From assembly GCF_004010195.1 (NCBI RefSeq), contig NC_057718.1, positions 85,433,625 to 85,497,078 on the forward strand: a DNA stretch of 63,454 nucleotides, written 5' to 3'. The notes beneath the pieces were generated by a model, which worked only from the letters and a program-made list of their open reading frames with translations, did not search any database and was not told the DNA's origin. Position numbers and translations under genes: made by a program. Numbering within the stretch: position 1 is the first letter of the stretch; every line of letters starts with the position of its first letter. This document shows positions 2,555-28,765 of the stretch, in pieces. This DNA is from Chiloscyllium plagiosum (lineage: Eukaryota).

Positions 2555-5500
2555 TGGAATTTTAAAAAAATATATACTTTTATTGGAAAACAGATTTTTT
2601 AATGCTACAACAAATACAAAATACAATTCAAAACAATACAAAGAAAGAACACCAAAAAAATGTAAAAAACCCAAACCGCCCTCATGTACAAATGTATAAA
2701 TATGCATAAAATAAAACCCAACTAACTACTTAACTAAATAAATAATGATTAACAAACTAATAAATAATAATACAGCTCAGCCAAACAAAACACTTACTCT
2801 TGAATATCGAGAACATTAATTTTCACCTATTCATATGTTCACAGTTCCCCTCTCTGGATATTGGACTCGTAAAGCACAATCATTATGGCTATCTAAAAGC
2901 CCTTATTAGTGTGGCAGACAAATCTGTGTCCAGGTATCCCAAAAAGGGCCACCATGCCTTATAGAAGTTTTCAGTTTTGTGGTCTACCATTCTTGTAAGA
3001 AAATCCAAGGGGATATTCTCCATAACAATCTTCTGCCAACCCGACAGCCCCGGGGATTTTCGGATACCCAACCTAACAAGATATTCTTTGTAGAGCAGAA
3101 AGTGAGGATGTTGAAAAGTGTTTTCTTAAAGCGCACCTGCAGGGAACACACTGGGCAGGCCAAGAAGGGAGATTGGGTCCTTCTCCACCCTTACACCCAA
3201 AATACCCTCCATTGCCCCGCCACAACGCTCCAGTATGTTTGAAGCCTACCACTGGACCAGAGTCAATGGGTAAGAGTGCCCGTACTAACTTTACACTTGG
3301 GACATGTTGAAGATATCCCTGGTTTAAATTTTGACAAATGATCCGGAGCCAAATGGACCCTGTGGAGAATCTTCAACTGTAAAGCATGGGTCCGATTGCA
3401 AACTGATATCTTTCTTGCGTTTTCCCAAATATCGTCCCATGCCTCTGAGGAGACCTCAAAGCCTAACTCTCCCACACCCTGCAAAGTCGATCAAAATCAT
3501 CTGAGGGGCCGTGCCACAATTCATGATATAAAGTGCTGACAGAAAGTGTATTCTTAGCACTGAGCACCCTCCTCTCTATGTCGGATTTGTAGGGATCTGT
3601 TAAAGGTATAGATTTTTTAAAATTAAATCCGTAACTTGAAAAAATGAGAGAGGCCCCTGCTGGATAGCTCGTACGTCCGTGCTAAGTGATCAAAGGACAT
3701 CAAAGTGTCTTCCTCAAATAAGTCACTCATGCAAGACACACCCCGAGCTGCCCAATGTTTGAATCCTGAATCCATTAGTCCTGGTTGAAAACCCGGCATA
3801 CCCACTATCGTTTTAAGAAAAGGTGTTTTGCCAATATTGCCTTCCCTCTGCCGAATTGTCCTCCATGCTTTAACAGTATTGATAACTATTGGGTCAAGGC
3901 AATATTCCCTAACTGTCCTCATTTTGTTCAAAAACAGCAAGCTAGCAACGGGGCACCTTGCCTGAGAAGTCTCCATATCTAATCATATTGAAAGAGGGTC
4001 CCCACAAGCCCAGTCACTCACATAAGATAAAAGCGAGCTTAGTTGATAGTTTTTGATGACCAGAAGATCCACTCTCCACCGCTCTGTGAGGCAATTACAG
4101 TTTAGCTAATTTATTAAGGGGCTGCTTATGATGCCAAATCAAAGACCTGAACATGCTGTTCAGCCTTCTGAACATTTGCTTATCAAAAATCAGGGGAGCA
4201 TCCGTATAGGATACAAGAAACTGGGGAGAATATTCATCTTAATAAGTGCTATCCAACCTACCCATGAGACCGGTAACGCCTCCCATCTTTGAAAGTCTTG
4301 TTTGATTTTGTTGAATAATTGAACAAAATTAGCCTGAAACAACTGACCAAGAACTGGAGTGATGAATATGCCCAAATACATAAAACCCCTCTGGGACCAC
4401 TTAAATAGGAATCAAGATTTGCCCTCAAGACCTAGCACCTTCATAAGACCACCCATAGGCGTAGCCTCTGATTTTACAAAATTAATCTTCTACCCCGAAA
4501 AGGTGACAAACTGGCTGATTCATTGTATCAGGCGAGGCACTGAAACTGCTGGATTTGACAAAACAAATGAGTACATCGTCCTTGTACAACGAAATCTTAT
4601 GTAAATTTGACCCCACTCCTGGGGTTGATAGATTGGGATCCCCACGAATGGCCTCCGCCAATGGTTCAATCACCGATGTAAAAATCAGTGGTGAAAGGGG
4701 ACATCCCTGTTGGCTGCCCCTAAAAATGTTGAAATTACTTGATTGTACCCCATTGGTGATGACCACAGCGAGAGGGTCACTGTAGAGAACCTTTACCCAT
4801 CTTATAAAGGCTTCACCCAAGCCAAACTGCTCCAGAATAAAAAAAGGTACGGCCATTCAGCCCGGTCAAATGCCTTCTCCAATCCCTGTACAGACTGTTG
4901 TTGAGACGCTTGAGTTACGTTAAGCAGCCTCATAACATTATTGGAGGATCTGCGGCCCTTTATGAAGCCCATCTGGTCCTCTTTAAAATAAAAGGTAACA
5001 TAGTCTCCAACCTTAACGCAAGAGTCTTACAGAGGATTTTAAAGTCCACATTTAAAAGTGAAATGGGCCTGTAAGAAGCACAGTCCTCCGGAACCTTCCC
5101 TTTTTTAAGAATAAATGAAATATTGGCCTCTCTTAGAAATGGCAGGAGACGATCAATGTACCAGTCATTGAACATGTTGAGCATCAGGCCTGACAATATG
5201 TTTATACATTCCTTATAGAGTTCACTGGGAAATTCATCAGGACTGGGTGCCTTTCCACTCTGAAGCTGTTTCACAGCCTCCTGCACCTCTTCCTCTGATA
5301 AGGGGGCATTGACAAAAGACTCTTGTTTAGGGGTGACACCTGGGAGCTACATAAACTAAAACCACTACAAATCAACAAACCCACAAAGTTAAAAATCACA
5401 CAATTAAACCTGTTGGACTATAACCTGGTGTTGTGTGATTTTTAACTTTGTACACCCCAGTCCAACACCGGCATCTCCAAATCAAACCTACAAAGCTATC

Positions 5501-6146
5501 AAAGATTATATACAACAAAAAACAAAAGAAAGTCAACCAACATATAAAGCGCCAATGGCACTGAAAAGGGGATCCCAAAGGGGGCATTTACACATCCCAG
5601 AACCCAATTTCCCATCCCACTGCCAATACTGCAGCTAGGGCATTTAAATACCTGAACTGGGCATAAAGTGCCTGTAAGTAGGCATCTTGTCATCCCAACC
5701 ATTTTCTCCCCTCCTAGCTAGAGCTGCACCATAAACACAAGCTAAAAAGAAAGAAAATACACCATGAATTAACAATGTGAACAAAGAAATTTTGAAAAAA
5801 TGGTAAGTACACCACCCATCTTTTGGTATAACTTAACTTAGAAATGGAAAGTACACATTCCAACTGCCCCGAACGTAGTTTAGACCAGATTGTTACCAAT
5901 AAAAAAAGGAAAAGAAAGTCCCGACCAGACTTCGTGTCTTTTTTTAAAGACACACAAGAGACATATCCGGACAACACTATTTGTACATACTAAATTGTTC
6001 AGATTAAGTTAATTTGTCCACAAAGTCTCTCGCCTTCTTCGACGTGTCAAAGAGATATACAGATCCATCTAAGGTGATCTGAAGCACCACCGGATACTTC
6101 AGAGAGTACTGGATCCCAAGCTCCCTCAGTCTTCTCTTAACACCAT
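2555..6146 (-). mobile_element. L1-clade LINE, 3' portion: ORF1 C-terminus, spacer, disrupted ORF2, 3' UTR
   Basis: ORF1 end GVKRRLRELGIQYSLKYPVVLQITLDG...VDKLT* (stop 6004-6006). ORF2 fragments include GKAPSPDEFP, YRPISLLNVDFKIL, RGSQQGCPLSP, SLYKDD, YLGIFIT and the C-terminal CPKC-x7-H motif. The endonuclease region is absent. Confidence 0.92.
5389..5484. mobile_element. Short Penelope terminal-repeat fragment inside the L1 spacer
   Basis: Matches the termini at 12392 and 14965-15020, has an internal inverted repeat (ttaaaaatcacacaa / ttgtgtgatttttaa), and is flanked by aaacc(c/t)acaaag. Confidence 0.7.
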
Positions 6147-6584
6147 AATTTTCTTTTTATCTTTTGCCCTTTGACAAGTATTGCTTGTCCATTCCCGCAA
6201 CATCCTCCCCAACGGACTTTCAGGAGGAATGTTACCAGGGACTTTGTCTTCTTCCTTTACTCCGTGACAGCTACTCTGCCTACACCCCATTTCCCGGGGC
6301 CCTCGCCAGTCCCTCAGCGATTAAATACCCCTTTTCCCGGCCACCAAGGCAATACTTAAAAGCCAGGTTTCTTACCTTGGTCTGTGCACAGAGTTGCCTG
6401 GCCCCTTTTCGCCGTATTTTCTATCGACCTCCGATCACTGTCCAATTCAGATGTCTCTCTTGTGGGATCCGTACCAGTCGCCAAGGGAGCGGACCAAACC
6501 GGGACACGTACCGCTCCTCAATTGGGAACGGGACACGTCTTCCCAGTGTCCAAGGCCAGCCACTCCCCCCGGCGATGGAAGAAC
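6147..6584 (-). mobile_element. ERV leader (splice donor AAG|GTAAG near 6375) and gag N-terminus (ATG 6290)
   Basis: MGCRQSSCHGVKEEDKVPGNIPPESPLGRMLREWTSNTCQRAKDKKKI has the MGxxxS myristoylation consensus and the matrix-type IPPxSPLGxML motif. It is too short for the ORF track. Confidence 0.88.
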
Positions 6585-6601
6585 ATCCCGGACAGCCCCC
6601 A
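6585..6601 (-). promoter_or_regulatory. tRNA-Pro primer binding site
   Basis: TGGGGGCTGTCCGGGAT differs from the canonical Pro PBS TGGGGGCTCGTCCGGGAT by one deleted base. Confidence 0.9.
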
Positions 6602-6603
6602 AT

Positions 6604-6835
6604 TGTGAGAAACAAAGCTCACACACTTCAATAATTGCAGTCTGAGACAAAATCTGAATCAGTAGTGTCCTTTATTTTACTCTTGCAAGAGGGTGTGATG
6701 TCCAGTGTCTACAAGGCAAGGGACACACACACACCAAATTCAATTAATACACGATATTTATATAATTTGGTTTCTTTTTTTTTCATTGCACCTCCTCTGT
6801 TTACATCTTCCACTTCCCTAAGACCGGCACCCTTT
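6604..6835 (-). promoter_or_regulatory. Partial retroviral LTR (end of U3, R, U5)
   Basis: On the minus strand: CAAT near 6786, TATAAATA near 6755-6762, AATAAA at 6671-6676, and a terminal CA at 6605-6604 two bases before the PBS. Confidence 0.8.
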
Positions 6836-9595
6836 CCGTGACCAACACTAGATCATCCTTTTCTATTAATATTGCCTCATATTTCAAAATCCACGAGTCT
6901 GTCAACCATCGCCCAGCTTTTTGGTTTAGGATCGTTCTCACTTGGTGTGGGGTGTTTACTATTAGGGCTCTCCCAAATGTAAGCTTTCTGCTTTCCTCCA
7001 CCAACAGTGCAGTGGCAGCCACAGCCTGCACACACTCAGGCCATCCCCGGGATACTGGATCCAATAGCTTCGAAAGATATGCTACTGGCTGTTTCATTCC
7101 TCCCCACCTCTGGGTTAATACTCCCAAAGCCGCTCCCTTATCTACAGTGGCAAAGAGGTGGAAAGGTTTATCTAGGGAAGGTAAGGCTAACACGGGGGCA
7201 TGGAGCATATCTCTTTTGAGTTCCTCAACTAGTTTTTTTTCCTCATCATCCCAACTTAGACATTTTGGTTCCTCCTCTAATAGTTTGAGATATAATTTCT
7301 TAGTCTTCTGAGCATAGGAATCAATCCACAATCTGCAATATCCCGTTAGACCCAAAAATTTACGTAACTCCCGTTTAGTCCTGGGCAGCGGCATCCCCAC
7401 TATTCCCTCTATCCGTTCCGGGCTTATCTTTCACTTTCCCTCACTAACTAAATGCCCCAAGTATTTCACTTCTTGCTCCACATATTGTAGTTTGTTTTTA
7501 GATACTCGCAGTCCTTGTTGGCCCAGAAAATTCAAAAATTTGTTAGTGGCTTCTACTACTCTTTCTCCAATATTTGTTCTAACATCTGTCCAAATAAATT
7601 CGTGGATTCCGTAAACCCCTGGGGGAGCACAGTCCACCGGTATTGCTGTTTCCGTCCTGTCTTGGGGTCTTCCCATTCAAAGGCGAACAAATTCCTACTT
7701 TCCTCCGCCAAGGGACAAGCCCAAAAGGCATCCTTTAAATCTATCACACTCAACCATTTGTGGTCATGAGGGATTTTACTTAATAACGTATAGGGGTTTG
7801 GCACCACTGGGTGCCTGACCTATACTATCCGATTTAATGTTCTCAAATCGTGCACCAATTGATAAGTTCCATCAGATTTCCGCACTGGTGGAATTGGGGT
7901 ATTATAAGGAGACATACATGGCTCCAACAGTCCATCTCTAAACAGTCCTTCAATTACTGGCTGCAGTCCTCGTTTACCTTCTATGGAAATGGGATATTGT
8001 CGCTCACAGACAATGTCCCCTTTCCTTTCTAAACTTATTAAAAGGGGAGGGATCTATAGTTTTCCACGATTCCCTTCTCTAGCCCATACAATAGGGTCTA
8101 TCTTTCTCTCCACATCCTCTGTCAACATTGCCATTTGTACAACTAATTCTTTTTCCTGAATTCCAATCTCCAGTCCTAAGAGGATAATTAAGTCTCTCCC
8201 TAGTAAGTTATTTCCTATATCAGGGATATACAGCAGTTCCCCTGTGACCCTATCCTTAGGACCTTCTATCATCATAGGTTCAAATACTGGAACAGTAAAT
8301 CCTTCCCCTTTTACCACCGAAACAGTAATTGACCGTGTCGACATTTCTACTTTCTTTGGTTTAAAATTTAGCGATGACCGTGCTGCCCCCGTATCTACTA
8401 GGAAGACTACCTCTTCCCTATAGGGTCCCACCTTCAAGTTTATCAAGGGTCCCTGGTGGGCCCCCGAGGAACCCCTGACACCCCTATTCTTCATCAAAAT
8501 TCATAAGCGGAATTGCCGTTTCTTCCCTTTGTAGATCAGGACACTTCTGCTTAAAATGCCCTATCTTTCCACAATAATAGCATCCTGCCTGTGGAGACCT
8601 CCATCTCTGCCCCTGTCGCTCGAACCTTTTGTCAAATGCTCCCCCTTGTCCTCTCCCTCTCCCCCTTCCTCTCTGTCCGACATGCTGCCACCCGCCGCTC
8701 CGGTTGCTCAATATTGGTTCCATTCTTTTCTTAACTACCTCATCAACCGTAGCTACCATCATTTTCACCTTCTGTTTTTGTCTCTCATCCTCTCTCTTTA
8801 CAAACACTTTCTGTGCCTCTCTTAACAATTCATCTAATGGTATATTCAAAATAGACATTAACTCAGCCCAGGTATACAGACTGGGCCCCAAAAATTGATC
8901 AATTTGTTCAGACAACCCCACCGGATCCTCAGCCAGGACCTTCATTTCCTTTTTAAATGTTCTGACCTCCCCACTGGTGAGGGGGGCATTTACAAACCCA
9001 ATCCCAGGACCTTCATTTCCTTTTTAAATATTCTGACCTCCCCACTGGTGAGGGGGGGGACTTCCAAACCCAATCTCTTTGTCCCCTATTGGTACCTCCT
9101 GAAGGGGATAAGTCGTTACGTTCTTCCCTTTTTTTTTGTTTTTCCCCCTTAGGCTTTGATTGAGATCCTCCGGAGGCCTCCTCTACATCTACTGTAGTTT
9201 TCCTTTCTTTTGCTGAGGATTGAGGGTCAGGAACAACAACATCCCTGTCCACTGCCCCTTCGTCTTCCTCTTGTGAGTCATCTGTTTCCTGTCCCTGTCT
9301 GTCTGTCTCTCCTCCTCCCCCGTTTTCACCTAACCTGATTTTATGGTACGGGGGGGGGGGGCAAATAGCCAAGAGGATCCCGGGGACTGGGTGGGGCAGA
9401 GGGGGAATCCCTTGTCTTTACTACCATCATTCCCAAACTGCCCTTTCAACAGGATGCATAGTCCGCCTCCTCTTGACTAAAAGGTTGTTTTTTATTCACA
9501 TACAAATCTAAATACTGACAGACCCAATCCCCCTCCGAACCATACTTTTGCCAGAAGACAGCTGGACGAAGGATTGGGTCTTTGGACCATACTAA
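6836..9595 (-). mobile_element. Class I (gamma/epsilon-like) endogenous retrovirus: gag from mid-matrix, pro, partial pol
   Basis: WSKDPILRPAVFWQKYGS (MA-like); PPPY late domain; CYYCGKIGHFKQKC zinc knuckle; gag ends FDEE-TAG-GGG at 8484-8486; protease FLVDTGA; RT IDLKDAF and YRWTVLPQGF; thumb FLGLTGYCRLWI; connection PVAYLSKLLDPV. Confidence 0.95.
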
Positions 9596-10431
9596 GATCA
9601 CTGCCGCTGAGAAGTCCTGGAAGAACATGATTTTAGAGCTCTCGTAAACTTGGGCCTTTGGATCCTTCCCCTGGATTCTGGAAGCTCCCACGATTCTCTC
9701 CTTACTTTGATAGTAATGAAACCGCACCAAAGCAGGATGAGGACATTGATCCAGATCTGACCTCCGCGCCGTGACCCAGTGAGCCCTCTCCATCTTCGAG
9801 CCTCTCATTTCAGCTTCCAAGTTAAGGAATTTCAACAACCAGTCCTCAATAAATTCTGCAGGCTTCTCACCTTCCTTACCCTCTGGCAGACCAACGATCC
9901 GAATATTTTTTCTCTTGCCCCTGTTCTCGAGGTCATCAACCTGGTCAAGCAAATTACAGACTTGTGTCTCCAGGGCTTGGATCCTATCCTTGGAGGAATC
10001 GGTATTGGCTACCACAACTGTGACCCTGTGTTCTACCTCATCCGTCCTTTTCTCCAGGTCTCCCATCTGCAGTTCATGCTTCTGCAGCATGATAGAGATC
10101 GGGACCAGCTTCTCCTCTATCTGCTTGCCCAATATCTCGTGAGATTTCGTGAGCTCCTTTACCAGGACCTGGTAAGAAATCGATTCCGAGGATCCTGCTG
10201 CCTGGACCGCGGGCCCAGCCTCAGATGTACCTCCTCCCTTCTTCAGCATCCCTGGACGGTGAAAACCGAGGTAAGTTGCTCTCTGACAGTGTCCTGAGAC
10301 TCCATGACCTTTCCAGAGTCCCAAGATATCGCAGTGGCCTGAGTAGGGCGGGCTAGGACTTCATCCCACCTGCAATGCAGTGCAGAGCTCAGCAACGCAA
10401 TCTTCCCTCGGTCGCCACCATCTTGGATCCT
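9596..10431 (-). mobile_element. L1-clade LINE, 5' portion: 5' UTR and ORF1 coiled coil/RRM
   Basis: DDLENRGKRKNIRIVGLPEGKEG, MERAHW and KIMFFQDFSAAVI are typical L1 ORF1 segments. Likely ATG at 10249; GC-rich 5' end CAAGATGGTGGCG. Confidence 0.92.
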
Positions 10432-11838: not shown

Positions 11839-12440
11839 GAGGTTCGCTAAGAGGATAGGTTAGCCATCAGTCACTGTAGACAGTGTGAATATAACTGGTG
11901 TGAATGTGGACAGAATAAGTATGAACAGGTCAGTGGGAGAGTTTTAGCATGGACAAGATTAGTGTGGACAGTGAAACTTCTGGTCTGTAAGAAGGGGAGA
12001 GTATCAGTCCAGGCAAGGCAGGTATAGACAGTGTCAGTATGGATGGTAACAGTACCAACATACGTAGTGCAAGGATTGTGGAAAGTGTCAATTTGGGCAT
12101 TATCAGTGTGGAAAGTATAAGTTGTGGACATGGTTAATGTGGACAGTAACATTACAGTGTGTCAGTATGAACAAGGTCAATATGAGTGTAATCAGTGTCA
12201 ACATGGATAATGTGAGTGTGAAAATTGTAGTGTAGACAGTGTGGGTGCAAAAACTAATTTGTAGTTAGCATCAGCATGGGGAGTGTCAGCATAGACAGAC
12301 AGTGCGGAGAGAGAGAATTGTGGACAGTATGAGTATTGAAGACAGTGTCAGTTGTAGAGTATGTGTGTGGACAACATCAATGTGGACAGCATTAAAAATC
12401 ACATAACACCAGGTTATAGTCCAACAGGTTTATTTGGATG

Positions 12441-12475
12441 CACGAGCTTTCGAAGCGCTGCTTCTTCATCAGGTG
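12441..12475 (-). ncRNA. Minimal hammerhead ribozyme motif (Penelope family A)
   Basis: CAC-CTGATGA-A-GAAGC-AGC-GCTTC-GAAA-GC-TC-GTG: intact core, 5-bp helix II, palindromic AGCT helix III, CAC/GTG helix I. Confidence 0.8.
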
Positions 12476-14907
12476 GTTGTGGAGCAGAATCATACAACAC
12501 AGAATTTATAACAACAGGATTGCAGTGTCATGGAATAATAGTAAACAAATTTAGCTTGAGTCTTTCGGTTTTGAGAATGATATGTTAGTTTCGGTTCCTT
12601 CATATGTAAGTCCCAGAACTTTCTTAAGGTTACATTGTCAAGCTAGCTTTTAGCAACAGGTGCCGTCTCAGCTCCGATAATGCATTGAAGGTGTGAAGTT
12701 AAAGTCTGTCTGTGTCCTAATGCTAGGTCAGACTGATTCTGTATCTAAAGTTGAATTTACAGAATCTTACAAGGATGTATGCAGGTTTTCAGCAAAATAA
12801 AATGTAGTTCTGCAAGTACAAATTCACCCCACAGACTTATATGTGTGTGTGTGTGTTTGTCTGTGTGCAGGGGAGATCGAATGAATGTGTGCATGTGTGT
12901 CTGTGTGTGTCTGTGTATAGTGTAGTAGGGTCATCTGTGGTGTGACATGAACCCAAGATCCTGGTTGAGGCCATCCCTATGGGTATTGAACTTGGCTATC
13001 AGCCTCTGCTCGGCGTGTTTGCATTTGTTGCCGTGTACTTGGTGGGCGACACTCTGACAAGTCTTGCAGCATCTGCCGTGACAGGGTTGTAGGTGTTGTC
13101 CTGAAAGGTGGGCAGTTTGCTGTGAACAATGATTTATTTGACATTTGGTGGTTGTTTAAAGATGAGAAATGGAGGAATGGGGAAGGTCATGGCGAGATGC
13201 TTATTCTCTTCGATAATGTGTTACAGGCTGTGAAGAACATGGCGTAGTTTTTCCCCTCCGGGAAGTACTGGACAACAAAGGGTACCCTATCTGTTACGAC
13301 CTGTATCTGTGTCCTGAGGAGGTCATTATGGTTTCTGACTGTGGCACGTCAGAAGTTGAGCATCGTACCCTGTTCATATGAGGGCATCCTTGAGCACCTT
13401 CAGGTGTCCATCACATTTCTCCTCATCTGAACCGAGTCTGTGTATACAGAGGGCTTGTCTGTAGTGGATGGCTGTTTTAATATGTTTAGGGTGGAAGCTA
13501 GAGAAGTGTAGCATTGTGAGGTAATCTGTGGGTTTGTGGTAGAGTGAGGTGCTGAGGTGCCCATCCTTGATGGAGATACATGTGTCCAAGAATGAGACAG
13601 ATAGTAGAGAGTAGTCCGTGGTGAGTTTGATGGTGGGATGAAAGTTGTTGATATCACTGTGTAGTTTTTTTAATGACTCCTTGCCATGGGTCCAGAGAAA
13701 AAAAATGTCATCAATGTACTTGCTGTCTGGTGTTGGTTGGAGTTCCTGCTTAGAGAAGAAGTCTTGTTCGAGACTGTGCATGAAAATGTTGGCATATTAG
13801 GGGGCAAATTTGGTCCCCATGGCTGTTCCGTGTGTCTGGATGAAGAACTAGTTATCAAAGATGAAAATGTTGTGGTTGAGGAAAAAGCGGATGAGTTATA
13901 GGATGGTGCTTGGAGACTGGCAGTTATTGGTATTGAGTACTGAGGCTGTTGCCATGATGCCGTCACTGTGGGGGATGCTGTTAGAATGCTGAAATGTCCA
14001 TTGTGACGAGGAATGTTCCTGGTTTGACTGGTCCATGGGTGCTGAGTTTCTGTTAGAAATCTGCAATGTCGTGACAGAAACCCTGCACAATGGGTTTTAT
14101 GACGCCTTTGACATAGCCAGAGAAGTTCTGACATGAGGTTCCATTGCCTGATACGATGGGATGTCCTGGTGTGTTGGCTTTGAGTATCTTTAGAGGGCAG
14201 TAGAAGTTGCCTACGCGAGAAGTACGTGGGATAAGTGTGCATAGGGAACTCTGAACCGGGACCTTGGGTTCATGTCGCACTACAGGTGACCCCTCTGCAT
14301 GACGCGCACACACAAACACACACTTCTCACACACACACGTGCGCACACACAGACCCACACACTCCCACAGACCCTCTCTCACACACAAGCTCTCATACGC
14401 TCGCTCATACACACCCCACAGTCTCACCCACGTACGTACTCTCTCACAGGCTTATACCCCATTACACTCACACACATACACAGACACGCATGCACACACT
14501 CTCTCGGTCTCCCCTGCACGCACATGCGCGCTAACACACACACAAGTCTGTGGGGTGAATTTGTACTTGCAGAATTACATTTTATTTTGCTCAAAAAGTA
14601 CATAAATCCATGTAAGATTCTGTAAATCCCACTTTAGAAAGAATCAGTCTGACCTAACATTGGGACACAGACAGACTTTAGGTTCACACCTTCAATGCAT
14701 TATCGGAGCTGAGATGGCACCTATTGTTAAAAGCTAGCTTGAGAATGTAACTTTAAAAATGTTGTGGGATTTATATATGAAGGAACTGAAACTAACATGA
14801 TCATTCTAAAAGATGAAAGACTCAAGCTAAATATATTTAATATTTCATTCCATGACACTGCGATCCTGTTGCTATAAAGTCTGTGTCTTAGGATTCTGCT
14901 CCACAAT

Positions 14908-14942
14908 GACCTGATGAAGGAGCAGCGCTTTGAAAGCTAGTG
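14908..14942 (+). ncRNA. Minimal hammerhead ribozyme motif (family A, opposite arm)
   Basis: GAC-CTGATGA-A-GGAGC-AGC-GCTTT-GAAA-GC-TA-GTG; helix II has two G-U pairs. Confidence 0.7.
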
Positions 14943-15084
14943 ATTCCGAATAACGCTGATGGAAAATAACTTGGTGTTGCGAGATTTTTAACTTTGTCCA
15001 TCCCAGTCCAACACCGGCCTTTCCAAAAAATGTGGGGACAGTGTAAAGTGCAAACAAGACATTGTGTTAGTGACAGTGAGGATT

Positions 15085-17365
15085 GTGTGATAGCAGTGTG
15101 GAAAGTGAGAATGTGGACAGTCACAGGGGTGTCAGTGCAGAAAGTGAGAATGTGGACAGTTTCAGGGTGTCAATATGCACAGTGAGAAAGAATAATTTCA
15201 GGAATGTCAGTGTGGACAGTGAGAATGGGGACAATTTCAGAGGGGTCAGTGTGGAAAGTGAGAACGTGGACAGTTTCAGGGTGTCAATATGCACAGTGAG
15301 AAAGAATAATTTCAGGAATGTCAGTGTGGGGACAGTCTCTGGGGTGTCACTGTGGACAGTGAGAATGGGGACAGTCTCAGGGGTGTCAGTATGGACAGAT
15401 GGAATGGAGACAGTTTCAGGGGTATCAGTGTTGGACAGTGGGAATGGGGACAGGCTCAGCGGTGTCAGTGTGGACAGTGGGAATAGGGATAGTTTCAGGG
15501 GTGTCAGTGTGGGCAGTGCGAATGGGGACAGTCTCAGGGGTGTCAGTGTGGTCAGTGAGAATGGGGACAGACTCAGCGGTGTCAGTGTGGACAGTGAGAA
15601 TGGGGACAGTTTCAGGGGTGTCAGTGTGGACTATGGGAATGGGGACAGTTTCAGGGATCTCAGTGTAGACAGTGAGAACGGGGACAGTCTCGGGTTGTCA
15701 TTGTGGTCAGTGAGAATGGGGACAGACTCAGCGGTTGTCAGTGTGGACAGTGAGAATGGGGACAGTTTCAGTGGTGTGAGAGTGGACAGTGGGAATGGGG
15801 ACAGTTTCAGGGGTGTCAGGGAGGACAGTGAAAATGGGGACAGACTCAAAGTGTCAGTGTGGACAGTGGGAATGGGGACAATCAAAGGGGTGTCAGTGTG
15901 AACAGTGGGAATGGGGACAGTTCCAGGGGTGTCGGTGTGGACTGTGAGAATGGGAACAGACTCGGGGTGTCAGTGTGGACAGTCAGGGGTGTCAGTGCGT
16001 AAAGTGAGAACGTGGACAGTTTCAGGGTGTCAATATGCACAGTGAGAAAGAATAATTTCAGGGGTGTCAGTGTGGACAGTGAGAATGGGGACAGTTTCAG
16101 AGGGGTCAGTGTAGACAGTGAGAATGGGGACAGTTTCAGAGGGGTCAGTGTGGACAGTGGGAACGTGGACAGTTTCAGGGGTGTCGGTATGCACAGTGAG
16201 AAAGAATAATTTCAGGGGTGTCAGTGTGAACAGTGGGAATGGGGACAGTTTCAGAGATGTCACTGTGGACAGTGGGAATGGGGCCAGTTTCAGAGATGTC
16301 ACTGTGGACAGTGAAAATGGTGACAATTTCAGGAGTGTCAGTGTGGACAGTGGGAATGGGGACAGTTTCAAGGGTGTCAGTTTGGACAGTGAGAATGGGG
16401 ACAGTCTCAGGGGTGTCAGTGTGGACAGTGGGAAGGGGTCAGTCTCAGAGGGGCCAGTGTGGACAGTGGGAATGGGGACAGTCCCAGGGATGTCAGTGTG
16501 GACAGTGAGAATAGGGACAGTCTCAGAGGGGTCAGTGTGGCCAGTGGGAATGGGGACAGTCACAGGGGTGTCAGTGTGGACAGTGGAAAAGGAGCAGTTT
16601 TAGCGGTGTCAGTGTGGACAGTGGGTATGGGGACATTCACAAGGGTGTCAGTGTGGACAGTGGGAATGGGGTTATTCTCAGGGGTGTCAGTATGGACAGT
16701 GAGAATGGGGACAGTCTCAGGGGTATCAGAGTGAACAGTGGGAATGGGGACAGTTTCAGGGGTGTCAGTGTGGACAGTGGGAATGGGGACAGTTTCAGGG
16801 GTGTCAGTGTGGATAGTGAGAATGGGGAGAGTTTCAGGGGTGTCAGTGTGGACAATGAGAATGGGGACAGTCTCAGGGTTGTGAGAGTGGACAGTAAGAA
16901 TGAGGACAGTCAAAGGGGTGTCAGTGTGGATAGTGGGAATGGGGACAGTTTCAGGCGTGTCAGTGCAGACAGTGGGAATGGGGACAGTTTCAGGGGTGTC
17001 AGTGTGGACAGTCGGAAAGGGTACAGCTTCATGGGTGTCAGTGTAGACAGTGAGAATGGGGACATGTCAAAGGGGTGTCAGTGTGGACAGTGGGAATGGG
17101 GACAGACTCAGGGGTGTCAGTGTGGACAGTCGGAATGGGGACAGTTTCAGGGGTATCAGTGTAGACAGTGAGAATGGGGACAGTTTCAGGGGTGTCAGTG
17201 TGGACAGTCGGAAAGGGTACAGCTTCATGGGTGTCAGTGTAGACAGTGAGAATGGGGACAGTCAAAGGGGTGCCAGTGTGGACAATGGAAATGGGGCATT
17301 TTCATGGGTGTCAGTGTGGACAGTGGGAATAGGGACAGTTTCAGGGGTGTCAGTGTGGACAGTGG
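15085..17365 (+). repeat. 39-bp G-rich minisatellite running into gap 17366-17865
   Basis: Unit gtgtcagtgtggacagtgggaatggggacagtttcaggg (starts at 16762 and 16801), more than 50 imperfect copies. Confidence 0.97.
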
Positions 17366-20492: not shown

Positions 20493-20673
20493 CATCTGAT
20501 CCAATATCAGTTCCATGGAGATAGTTCAGGATAGTTCATGGACTCAGTAGTTAATCAGTTAATGTCTGTGGATCAAGTGTTCATCTGATCCAATATCAGT
20601 TCCATGGAGATAGTTCAGGATAGTTCATGGACTCAGTAGTTAATCAGTTAATGTCTGTGGATCAAGTGTTCAA
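20493..20673. repeat. 89-bp tandem duplication
   Basis: catctgatccaatatcag...gatcaagtgtt starts at 20493 and again at 20582. Confidence 0.95.
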
Positions 20674-24183: not shown

Positions 24184-24712
24184 GCCAAAGCAAAAGAATG
24201 ATGTGCTAATAGACTTTGATGAATTATGGTGGGAGGGAGCTCTTGAGAAGTATAAATATCAGGATAGACCAGTTAGAGAAACAAGTAATGGGTAAGAAAT
24301 GTTACCCAACTATTGATTTCTACATTCTGAGTGCAGATCTTTTAGAGTTGCTTGACTGAAGGTCATGATGTCAACAAGTACTTTCAGTTCACTAGCTCTG
24401 GCCAGGAAGCCAGACCGAACTGTCTACATACAAAGTTGTTGGGGCTCGCCAAAGCAAAAGAATGATGTGCTAATAGACTTTGATGAATTATGGTGGGAGG
24501 GAGCTCTTGAGAAGTATAAATATCAGGATAGACCAGTTAGAGAAACAAGTAATGGGTAAAAAATGTTACCCAACTATTGATTTCTACATTCTGAGTGCAG
24601 ATCTTTTAGAGTTGATTGACTGAAGGTCATGATGTCACCAAGTACTTTCAGTTCACTAGCTCTGGCCAGGAAGCCAGACCGAACTGTCTACGTACAAAGT
24701 TGTTGGGGCTCG
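24184..24712. repeat. 264-bp tandem duplication
   Basis: gccaaagcaaaagaatgatgtgc starts at 24184 and 24448; the copies differ by a few substitutions. Confidence 0.95.
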
Positions 24713-27194: not shown

Positions 27195-28765
27195 TAAAAT
27201 ATAAAACTGTATAAATCGCTATGACCTGATCCAGTGTGTCCCAGGACGTTGTGGGAAATAAGGGACAAAATTGCAAGGTACCTTGCAGAAATATTTGGAT
27301 CATTTATAACTATGGGTGGTGTGCTGGATGACTGGAGGGTGACTGATGTACCTTTGTTTAACAAGGGATGTAAGGAGAAACTTGAAAACTTAGACCTGTG
27401 AGCCTGACTTCGATTGTTTGTAAGTTGTTGGAAGTGATTTTGAAAGATACGATTTTTATGCATTTGGAGAGGCAAGGAATAATTAGGGATAGTCAGCATG
27501 GTCTTGTGCGAGGGAAATCATGTCTCACAAATTTGATTGAAAGTAACCAAGAAGATTGATGAGGGCAGTGCAGTGGACATTGTTTACATTGACTTTAGTA
27601 AAGTCTTTCACTGGGTTTTGCATGGTAGACTGATTAAGTTAGATCACATGGGATTCAGGGTGAGCTTGCCAATTGATATAAAATTGGCTTAATGACAGGA
27701 GACAGAGTGATGGTGGAGGGTTGTTTTTCGGACTGGAGGCCTGTTATGAGTAGTGTTCCACAGGGATCGGTGCTGGATCGACTTTCGTTTGTCCTTTATA
27801 TAAAACATTTAGATTCGACTTTCGTTTGTCCTTTATATAAAACATTTAGATGAAAATGTAGAAGGCATGGTTAGTATGTTTGAGGATGATACCAAAATTA
27901 GTGAAGACAGTGAAGAAGCATATCTAAGATTACAAAGAGATTGTGATCAATTGGGTCAATGGGGTGAGGACAGGCAGATGGAGTTTAATTTGGATAAATG
28001 TGGGCGGAATTGCATTTTGGTAAAACAAACAAGGGCAGGACGTACACAAATAAAAGTAGGACCTTGGGTCATGTTGTAGAACAGAGAGACCTCAAGGTTC
28101 GGATATATAATTCTTTGAAGTTTGCATCACGTGTAGATAAGGTGGTTAAGACGGCATTTATCACACTTGCCTTCATTGCTCAGACCTTTGAGTATAGGAG
28201 TTAGGACGTCATGTTGAGGTTGTGCAGGACATTGGTAAGGTATCTTCTGGAGACTTTGTGCGGTTCCAGGTGCCCTGTTATAGGAAGGATATTATTAAGC
28301 TGCAGAGGGTTCAGAAAAGATTTACCAGGATGCTGCTAGGAATGGAGGCTTTGAACGATAATGAGAGGCTGGATAGACTGGGACTTTTTCACTGGAGCAT
28401 TGACCTTTTAGAGGTTTATAAAATCATGAAGAGTACAGATAAAGTGAATGGCAGTTTCTTTTCCCTAGGGTGGAGGATTTCAAGACCAGGGGACATATGT
28501 TTAAGGTGAGAGGAGAAAGATTAAAAAAAACATGAGGTAATTTTTTTTTACACCGAGTGGTTCGTGTATGGAATGAACGTCCAGAGGAAGTGGTGGATGC
28601 GGGTACAGTTACAATGTTTAAAAGATATTTGGATAAGTACATGAATAAGAAATGTTTGGAAGGATATGGACCAAGTGCAGGCAGGTGAGACTAGTTTACT
28701 TTGAGATTGTGGTCAGCATAGAGTGGTTGGACTGACTGGTCTGTTTCCATGCTGTATGACTCTAT
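27195..28765 (+). mobile_element. CR1-type LINE ORF2 3' part, containing a 37-bp tandem duplication at 27778-27851
   Basis: VSMFEDDTKI, QMEFNLDKC and LQRVQKRFTRML; tail gtatgactctat. Confidence 0.9.

Follow-up and report, generated by a model that had tools for sequence, protein, structure and literature searches.

A class I endogenous retrovirus segment with rotated gene order inside ORF1 of an L1 element in the Chiloscyllium plagiosum assembly, consistent with capture of a one-LTR ring

Introduction

How can a retroviral segment come to lie in a vertebrate chromosome with its genes in rotated order and with no LTR at either end? Circles carrying LTRs are usually treated as dead ends, and the annotation of endogenous retroviruses (ERVs) assumes colinear copies that run from LTR to LTR. 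Within the window (the whole stretch of Chiloscyllium plagiosum DNA that we analyzed, 63,454 nucleotides, referred to below as the 63-kb window), the assembly sequence places a 3.45-kb class I ERV segment, on the minus strand and in rotated gene order, inside ORF1 of an L1. This permuted copy is unusually readable because two coding frames, that of gag and that of ORF1, serve as rulers for both of its seams. We use these rulers to ask what kind of event could have made the insertion, and we weigh the capture of a retroviral ring against other routes to the same product.

Results

Layout of the insert

Read along the minus strand, the insert enters gag in mid-matrix and continues through pro and RT into an LTR-like piece, a primer binding site (PBS) for tRNA-Pro, the leader and, last, the start of gag. 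The gag start is thus positioned downstream of pol: residues 1-51 of the Gag homologue P0151 match 6290-6144 (E 1e-10), and its residues 56 onward match from 9595. In the pol part, the Pfam domains follow the order RVP, RVT_1, RT_RNaseH_2. The ERV and the L1 share one orientation, both host junctions fall within gag, and there is a single LTR-like piece only. The features, listed here in minus-strand order, are as follows.

9596..10430, minus strand: L1 5′ end plus the opening part of ORF1, an open frame that likely starts at about 10252 and is cut at 9596; placed by homologue matches, the 5′ end by eye
8484..9595, minus strand: gag from mid-matrix to its stop codon; tblastn matches to P0151 residues 56-271, 225-289 and 431-546, and a zf-CCHC domain
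8933..9075, minus strand: 71-bp tandem duplication within capsid, copies 93% alike
6831..8483, minus strand: pro and RT to the end of the connection domain; matches P0163 residues 1-290 and 317-about 558
6604..6836, minus strand: single LTR-like piece; TATA-like box at 6764, AATAAA at 6676, CA end at 6604
6585..6601, minus strand: tRNA-Pro PBS, 2 nt after the CA; identified by comparison with a published PBS (see below)
6291..6584, minus strand: 5′ leader, placed by its position between PBS and gag ATG
6150..6290, minus strand: gag start, first 47 codons of matrix, open frame; matches P0151 as above, and also P0153-P0158
6142..6149, minus strand: ambiguous seam, 8 nt readable as gag or L1; holds a hexamer also found at 9591-9586
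6004..6141, minus strand: the final 45 codons of L1 ORF1 with its stop, in an open frame; 80 of 150 ORF1 homologues align here
2580..6003, minus strand: rest of the L1 (spacer, decayed ORF2 and 3′ tail); stops and frame changes, 3′ end placed by eye

Elsewhere in the 63-kb window there is no second LTR or further ERV piece and no additional copy of either gag segment, and the flanks are the two halves of one L1. As far as the assembly shows, the permuted structure is real. A search of sequencing runs by shared words listed 24 runs, of which 20 contain part of 5500-10400, none as much as half of the words (best 0.44) and no RNA run among them, a result that is no evidence for or against the junctions. 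The initial annotation of this DNA had already read the minus-strand order as gag, pro, pol, LTR, PBS, leader and gag start, and both the tblastn positions of the homologues and the Pfam domains agree with it. Its assignment of the PBS to tRNA-Pro also stands, with 17 of 18 positions identical to the tRNA-Pro PBS given in PMC1769482, as does its statement that neither end carries an LTR or a target duplication: both junctions lie in gag, and the target shows a net loss.

State of the retroviral parts

The main gag piece encodes one CCHC knuckle and is interrupted by several stops and frameshifts. Its capsid region has an internal deletion of about 141 codons at 8841/8840, and in the 71-bp duplication nearby the differences between the copies are concentrated at one end, a pattern that is uninformative for dating. 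The pro and RT part is 69-75% identical to the nearest Pol homologue, P0163, with about 26 codons of RT missing at 7565/7559. Homology to Pol ends between 6837 and 6831, near residue 558 of the 1163 in P0163, so that the insert lacks RNase H, integrase and whatever would lie 3′ of them. We propose no function for the insert: gag is split, RT is broken, and the sole LTR now faces the gag start and the L1 tail.

A partial LTR had been annotated at 6835-6604. Its CA end at 6604 holds up, and its start at 6835 is unproven, being simply the point where pol homology stops. Within the LTR-like piece, a 14-nt purine tract with a TG right after it, at 6819-6804, could be the border of a complete LTR of 202 bp, which would mean a true 1-LTR circle of a deleted element, although a tract and TG as good as these occur in 2215 of 10000 shuffles and three such tracts lie within the coding part. 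On its other side, the piece is followed by the PBS, as in such a circle. An autointegration circle would have an exact LTR terminus fused to internal sequence; near the pol end there is no good inverted-repeat match to the U5 end, the best being 9 of 15 positions.

Searching directly with the 48-residue gag start gave no match, and the Gag relatives used here were obtained with a capsid query. In scans for loci resembling the Pol piece, viral contigs gave 11 pattern matches and metagenome contigs gave 122; none of these was confirmed. The motif formed by the LTR end and PBS had no matches in metagenome contigs and one in the window, which is the locus itself.

Relationship to other retroviruses

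By similarity, the insert is a class I ERV, with a Pol that appears closest to gamma/epsilon-like retroviruses. The best solved structures were gammaretroviral RTs (E 4e-50, versus 7e-6 for foamy virus), and P0163 carries the MLVIN_C domain. The Gag homologue P0151 has Gag_p30 and zf-CCHC domains; the window piece has zf-CCHC, and its own short capsid piece gave no Pfam hit. Named Pol matches include proteins from Chiloscyllium punctatum (76%) and Leucoraja erinacea (65%). The insert shares with class I ERVs of non-mammalian vertebrates a Gag of the Gag_p30 type and a Pol of the MLV type (both judged from its nearest homologues), a tRNA-Pro PBS and one CCHC knuckle, but differs from them in its rotated order, its one LTR piece and its lack of RNase H, integrase and env.

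The host L1

The host element has both an L1-type ORF1p and an L1-type ORF2p, as expected for a member of the L1 clade. A close ORF1 homologue, P0003, matches human LINE-1 ORF1p (E 2e-14), and in ORF2 the segments 5346-4963 and 4856-4485 match human ORF2p residues 438-554 and 615-707, respectively. For many ORF1 homologues the match stops at query residue 255, which corresponds to nt 9596. No clear target duplication of the L1 itself was found; the best shared word is 7 nt long and lies away from the ends. Neither composition nor decay is informative for dating the two elements: CpG observed/expected ratios are 0.41-0.63 for the ERV and 0.38-0.50 for the L1, and there are 3 stops in 543 Pol codons versus 0 in 220 ORF1 codons.

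The L1 carries a second scar, at 5346-5500, where ORF2 begins at the equivalent of human residue 438 and about 1.3 kb, the endonuclease region, is missing. An 81-nt piece of another repeat lies at this ORF2 gap and also occurs at 14956-15027 and 12392-12436.

Spacing at the two seams

For each coding frame, we aligned the two pieces to natural homologues one at a time and recorded how many residues separate them. For gag, with the spacing counted between the codon ending at 6150 and the codon starting at 9589, six of the 17 Gag-bearing proteins carry both pieces (in the other 11, one or both are missing), and they give spacings of 8, 8, 8, 8, 9 and 7 residues, where the value of 7 comes from an alignment that is poor at the head of the piece. 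The L1 frame gives a more uniform answer: 80 of 150 ORF1 homologues passed the score filter on both halves, and all 80 place 8 residues between 9596 and 6141. The initial annotation had described the outer ends of gag as neighbors in one matrix domain with only a few codons missing, and the L1 ORF1 as nearly contiguous across the insert; both descriptions are confirmed and can now be given as residue counts. It had also placed the right-hand junction at 6146/6147. There is indeed a gag-to-L1 junction at this place, but its exact point cannot be set there, since 6149-6142 can be read as either gag or L1.

Together the two gaps should span 48 nt, and 14 are present: the left seam keeps 6, which align as gag, and the right seam keeps 8, which allow either reading. 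From this difference, about 12-18 nt of gag and about 16-24 nt of L1 were lost. The target therefore shows a net loss of about 16-24 nt with no duplication.

A hexamer is shared near both seams (6142-6147 and 9586-9591), and 418 of 10000 shuffles give as much. Perhaps the join made use of it as microhomology, or perhaps the gag ends overlapped slightly there and a small deletion came afterwards. We rejected it as a target-site duplication (TSD), its left copy being gag coding sequence.

If the two gag pieces had overlapped extensively or belonged to different ERV subfamilies, a deleted tandem array or two insertions would have been the more natural reading. Their ends instead lie 7-9 codons apart, and for each of the four gag pieces P0151 comes out in first or second place among the 7 homologues compared. 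This ranking is consistent with one lineage, while the identity to the nearest Gag, 51-63%, is too low to prove one subfamily. Two unrelated insertions were rejected on the grounds that the ends meet within 8 codons and the pieces share the same homologue ranking.

Discussion

A single exchange, probably with a ring

By far the simplest account of the two seams is a single exchange in which a break in gag and a break in the L1 traded ends, each seam being the reciprocal of the other. The near-contiguity of both gag and L1, together with the absence of LTR ends and of a target duplication, excludes integrase: an integrase-made provirus runs colinearly as LTR-gag-pol-LTR with terminal LTRs and is flanked by a TSD of 4-6 bp, and the insert has neither property. 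An integrase insertion was accordingly rejected. The reciprocal seams lie 3.45 kb from each other, and between them pol runs into the LTR; this requires a donor that had, at one stage or another, closed on itself. A ring is the most economical donor for such an exchange. We favor, with a probability of roughly 0.6, a ring with one LTR that suffered a single break, in gag's matrix region, and was end-joined by the host into a double-strand break in the resident L1.

Such a ring would have held one LTR, the PBS, gag and pol. It could have originated as a by-product of reverse transcription, by LTR-LTR excision of the kind that leaves only a solo LTR where a provirus had been, through autointegration, or by a join of pol to U3. 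Ring and chromosome would each have been broken once and then trimmed, and the four ends joined crosswise, with microhomology of a few bases perhaps helping at the right seam. The capture would have happened in the germline, with the copy decaying since.

The ring model gains support from the fact that each of its ingredients is documented: LTR circles, ERV capture at breaks and swapped-order insertions. Both circle reintegration and ERV capture at breaks are already known as separate phenomena. According to PMC12951756, one-LTR circles, full and rearranged, are the main LTR-element ecDNA in fly testes. For mouse zygotes, PMC4516963 reports that ERV pieces captured at breaks have truncated ends, mostly lack a TSD and show short microhomologies, and PMC7188851 states the swapped order efghijabcd as the signature of eccDNA-mediated insertion. 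Against the ring stands the evidence that circles are poor substrates for integration: PMC12951756 describes integration as rare despite abundant circles, and PMC4510976 describes much less illegitimate integration for vectors that form mostly 1-LTR circles.

Other routes to the same product

The initial annotation had proposed that a circle was broken in gag and captured by end joining. What survives of this is the single exchange without integrase, with a ring as its most economical donor. That interpretation overlooked a chromosomal route that needs no circle and gives the identical product, and also two further routes: a linear donor whose two pieces were captured in swapped order, and an L1 RT that switched template twice. 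On the chromosomal route, an inversion or reciprocal translocation would have had its breakpoints in the L1 ORF1 and in the gag of a provirus elsewhere, with later LTR-LTR recombination restoring order; a permuted one-LTR provirus would remain here and a solo LTR at the donor, and a deletion would then join pol to U3. The seams do make up the exact reciprocal pair of a balanced exchange with small losses at each, and LTR-LTR recombination is common (as described in PMC5932611). Even so, two rare chromosome-scale events would have to follow one another, the intermediate karyotype would have to survive, and the window holds no evidence of rearrangement; we consider this route unlikely. We judge a linear donor to be just as unlikely. 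Here DNA broken in gag would have been captured as two swapped pieces, or break repair would have copied about one unit of a head-to-tail array with shared LTRs. Several retroelement pieces can enter one break (PMC4516963, for its mouse material), tandem proviruses with shared LTRs are described at HML-2 7p22.1 and 6q14.1 (PMC11807958), and the deletions across tandem-provirus junctions that PMC5932611 describes as common would explain the pol-to-U3 join. The swapped capture, however, requires both pieces to keep one orientation, and for an array copy two independent ends would come as close as 18 nt to one position of the unit in about 0.5-1% of cases, by a simple geometric estimate uncorrected for the choice of this locus on that very pattern. 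A tandem provirus formed in place and trimmed by deletions was rejected outright, as it calls for several coincidences, with both deletions stopping within about 20 nt of the L1 site.

Less probable again, in our view, is an assembly artefact, either a misjoin of repeat fragments or an incorrectly filled gap. The window is repeat-rich and contains three runs of N, but the nearest of these is 1.8 kb away, the seams share at most about 6 nt, which is too little for an overlap misjoin, and an error would not be expected to leave gag and L1 both nearly contiguous; the private deletions and stops of the insert also show that it is not a collapsed young repeat. We give the least credence to a chimera made during L1 retrotransposition, in which the L1 RT would jump to a circular or concatemeric ERV RNA, copy one turn and return about 20 nt onward on the L1 RNA. 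The shared orientation of ERV and L1 fits this scheme, and a circular template would yield one full turn and a return near the same L1 position. Yet the insert runs unbroken through U3-like sequence, R, U5 and PBS, unlike normal genomic RNA, its leader is unspliced, and the literature listed by our search held no double switch with return.

Comparison with known insertions

Cattle Cs6 and Cs29 are eccDNA-mediated duplications. Closely comparable in form are three human candidates (Takahashi and Innan 2020, PMC7188851) and the Nile tilapia vasa duplication (Fujimura 2011, PMC3245284), which are likewise described as swapped-order inserts from a circle that was cut at a new point and reinserted. 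The order seen here agrees with theirs: the segments are swapped, keep the same orientation and have ends that are adjacent in the donor, as judged against protein homologues rather than donor DNA. PMC7188851 treats the remnant of a local tandem duplication as a false-positive pattern for eccDNA-mediated insertion, and within the 63-kb window the insert is not such a remnant. The difference lies in the donor: as presented in these two reports, the duplications are of host segments with a known donor, whereas here the donor is a retrovirus and the insert is described from the assembly sequence.

Among retroelements, MuERV-L and MaLR capture at mouse-zygote breaks (Ono 2015, PMC4516963) is described as also independent of integrase, with no LTR ends, short or no microhomology and small target losses, but the inserts in that study are truncated and measure some hundreds of bases, and none is described there as a rotated unit with meeting ends. 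The 1-LTR circles of nomad, copia, HMS-Beagle and mdg3, as reported in PMC12951756, have the same junction, with internal sequence followed by one LTR, PBS and gag. They differ in being extrachromosomal and in rarely integrating, and the LTR of the window insert is an LTR-like piece with a candidate polypurine tract. The HML-2 tandem proviruses at 7p22.1 and 6q14.1, too, are described in PMC11807958 as having a junction of internal sequence, LTR, PBS and gag, but they keep their outer LTRs and exceed one unit, whereas the window insert amounts to slightly less than one unit and has no outer LTR.

Our literature search, an incomplete one that covered titles and abstract openings, found no permuted germline ERV. 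If the permuted copy is real, end joining lets one-LTR rings, or something topologically equivalent, into vertebrate germlines, and a simple screen is on offer, namely a search for single LTRs across which gag or pol ends meet. A more specific version, which we regard as doubtful, is that reverse transcription of a defective class I retrovirus made a true 1-LTR circle, which opened in gag and became fixed in a vertebrate germline without integrase, and that permuted ERVs are an overlooked fossil class whose count would measure a second route of endogenization. One dead locus without function changes little alone.

Other features of the window

Three two-copy tandem duplications, of 264, 89 and 37 bp, lie at 24184-24712, 20493-20672 and 27778-27851, respectively, with 98-100% identity between copies; these are either recent duplications or assembly doubles. 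A 39-bp minisatellite, strongly G-skewed, is present in about 52 copies in 15327-17364 (region 15094-17365) and ends at an N gap, and looser units related to it occur near 11950-12400. Finally, two inverted repeat arms of about 480 bp (12383-12865 and 14517-15000, 83-91% complementary) surround a 1.65-kb core with RT-like open frames at 13374-13796, and we take this element (12383-15000) to be possibly Penelope-like.
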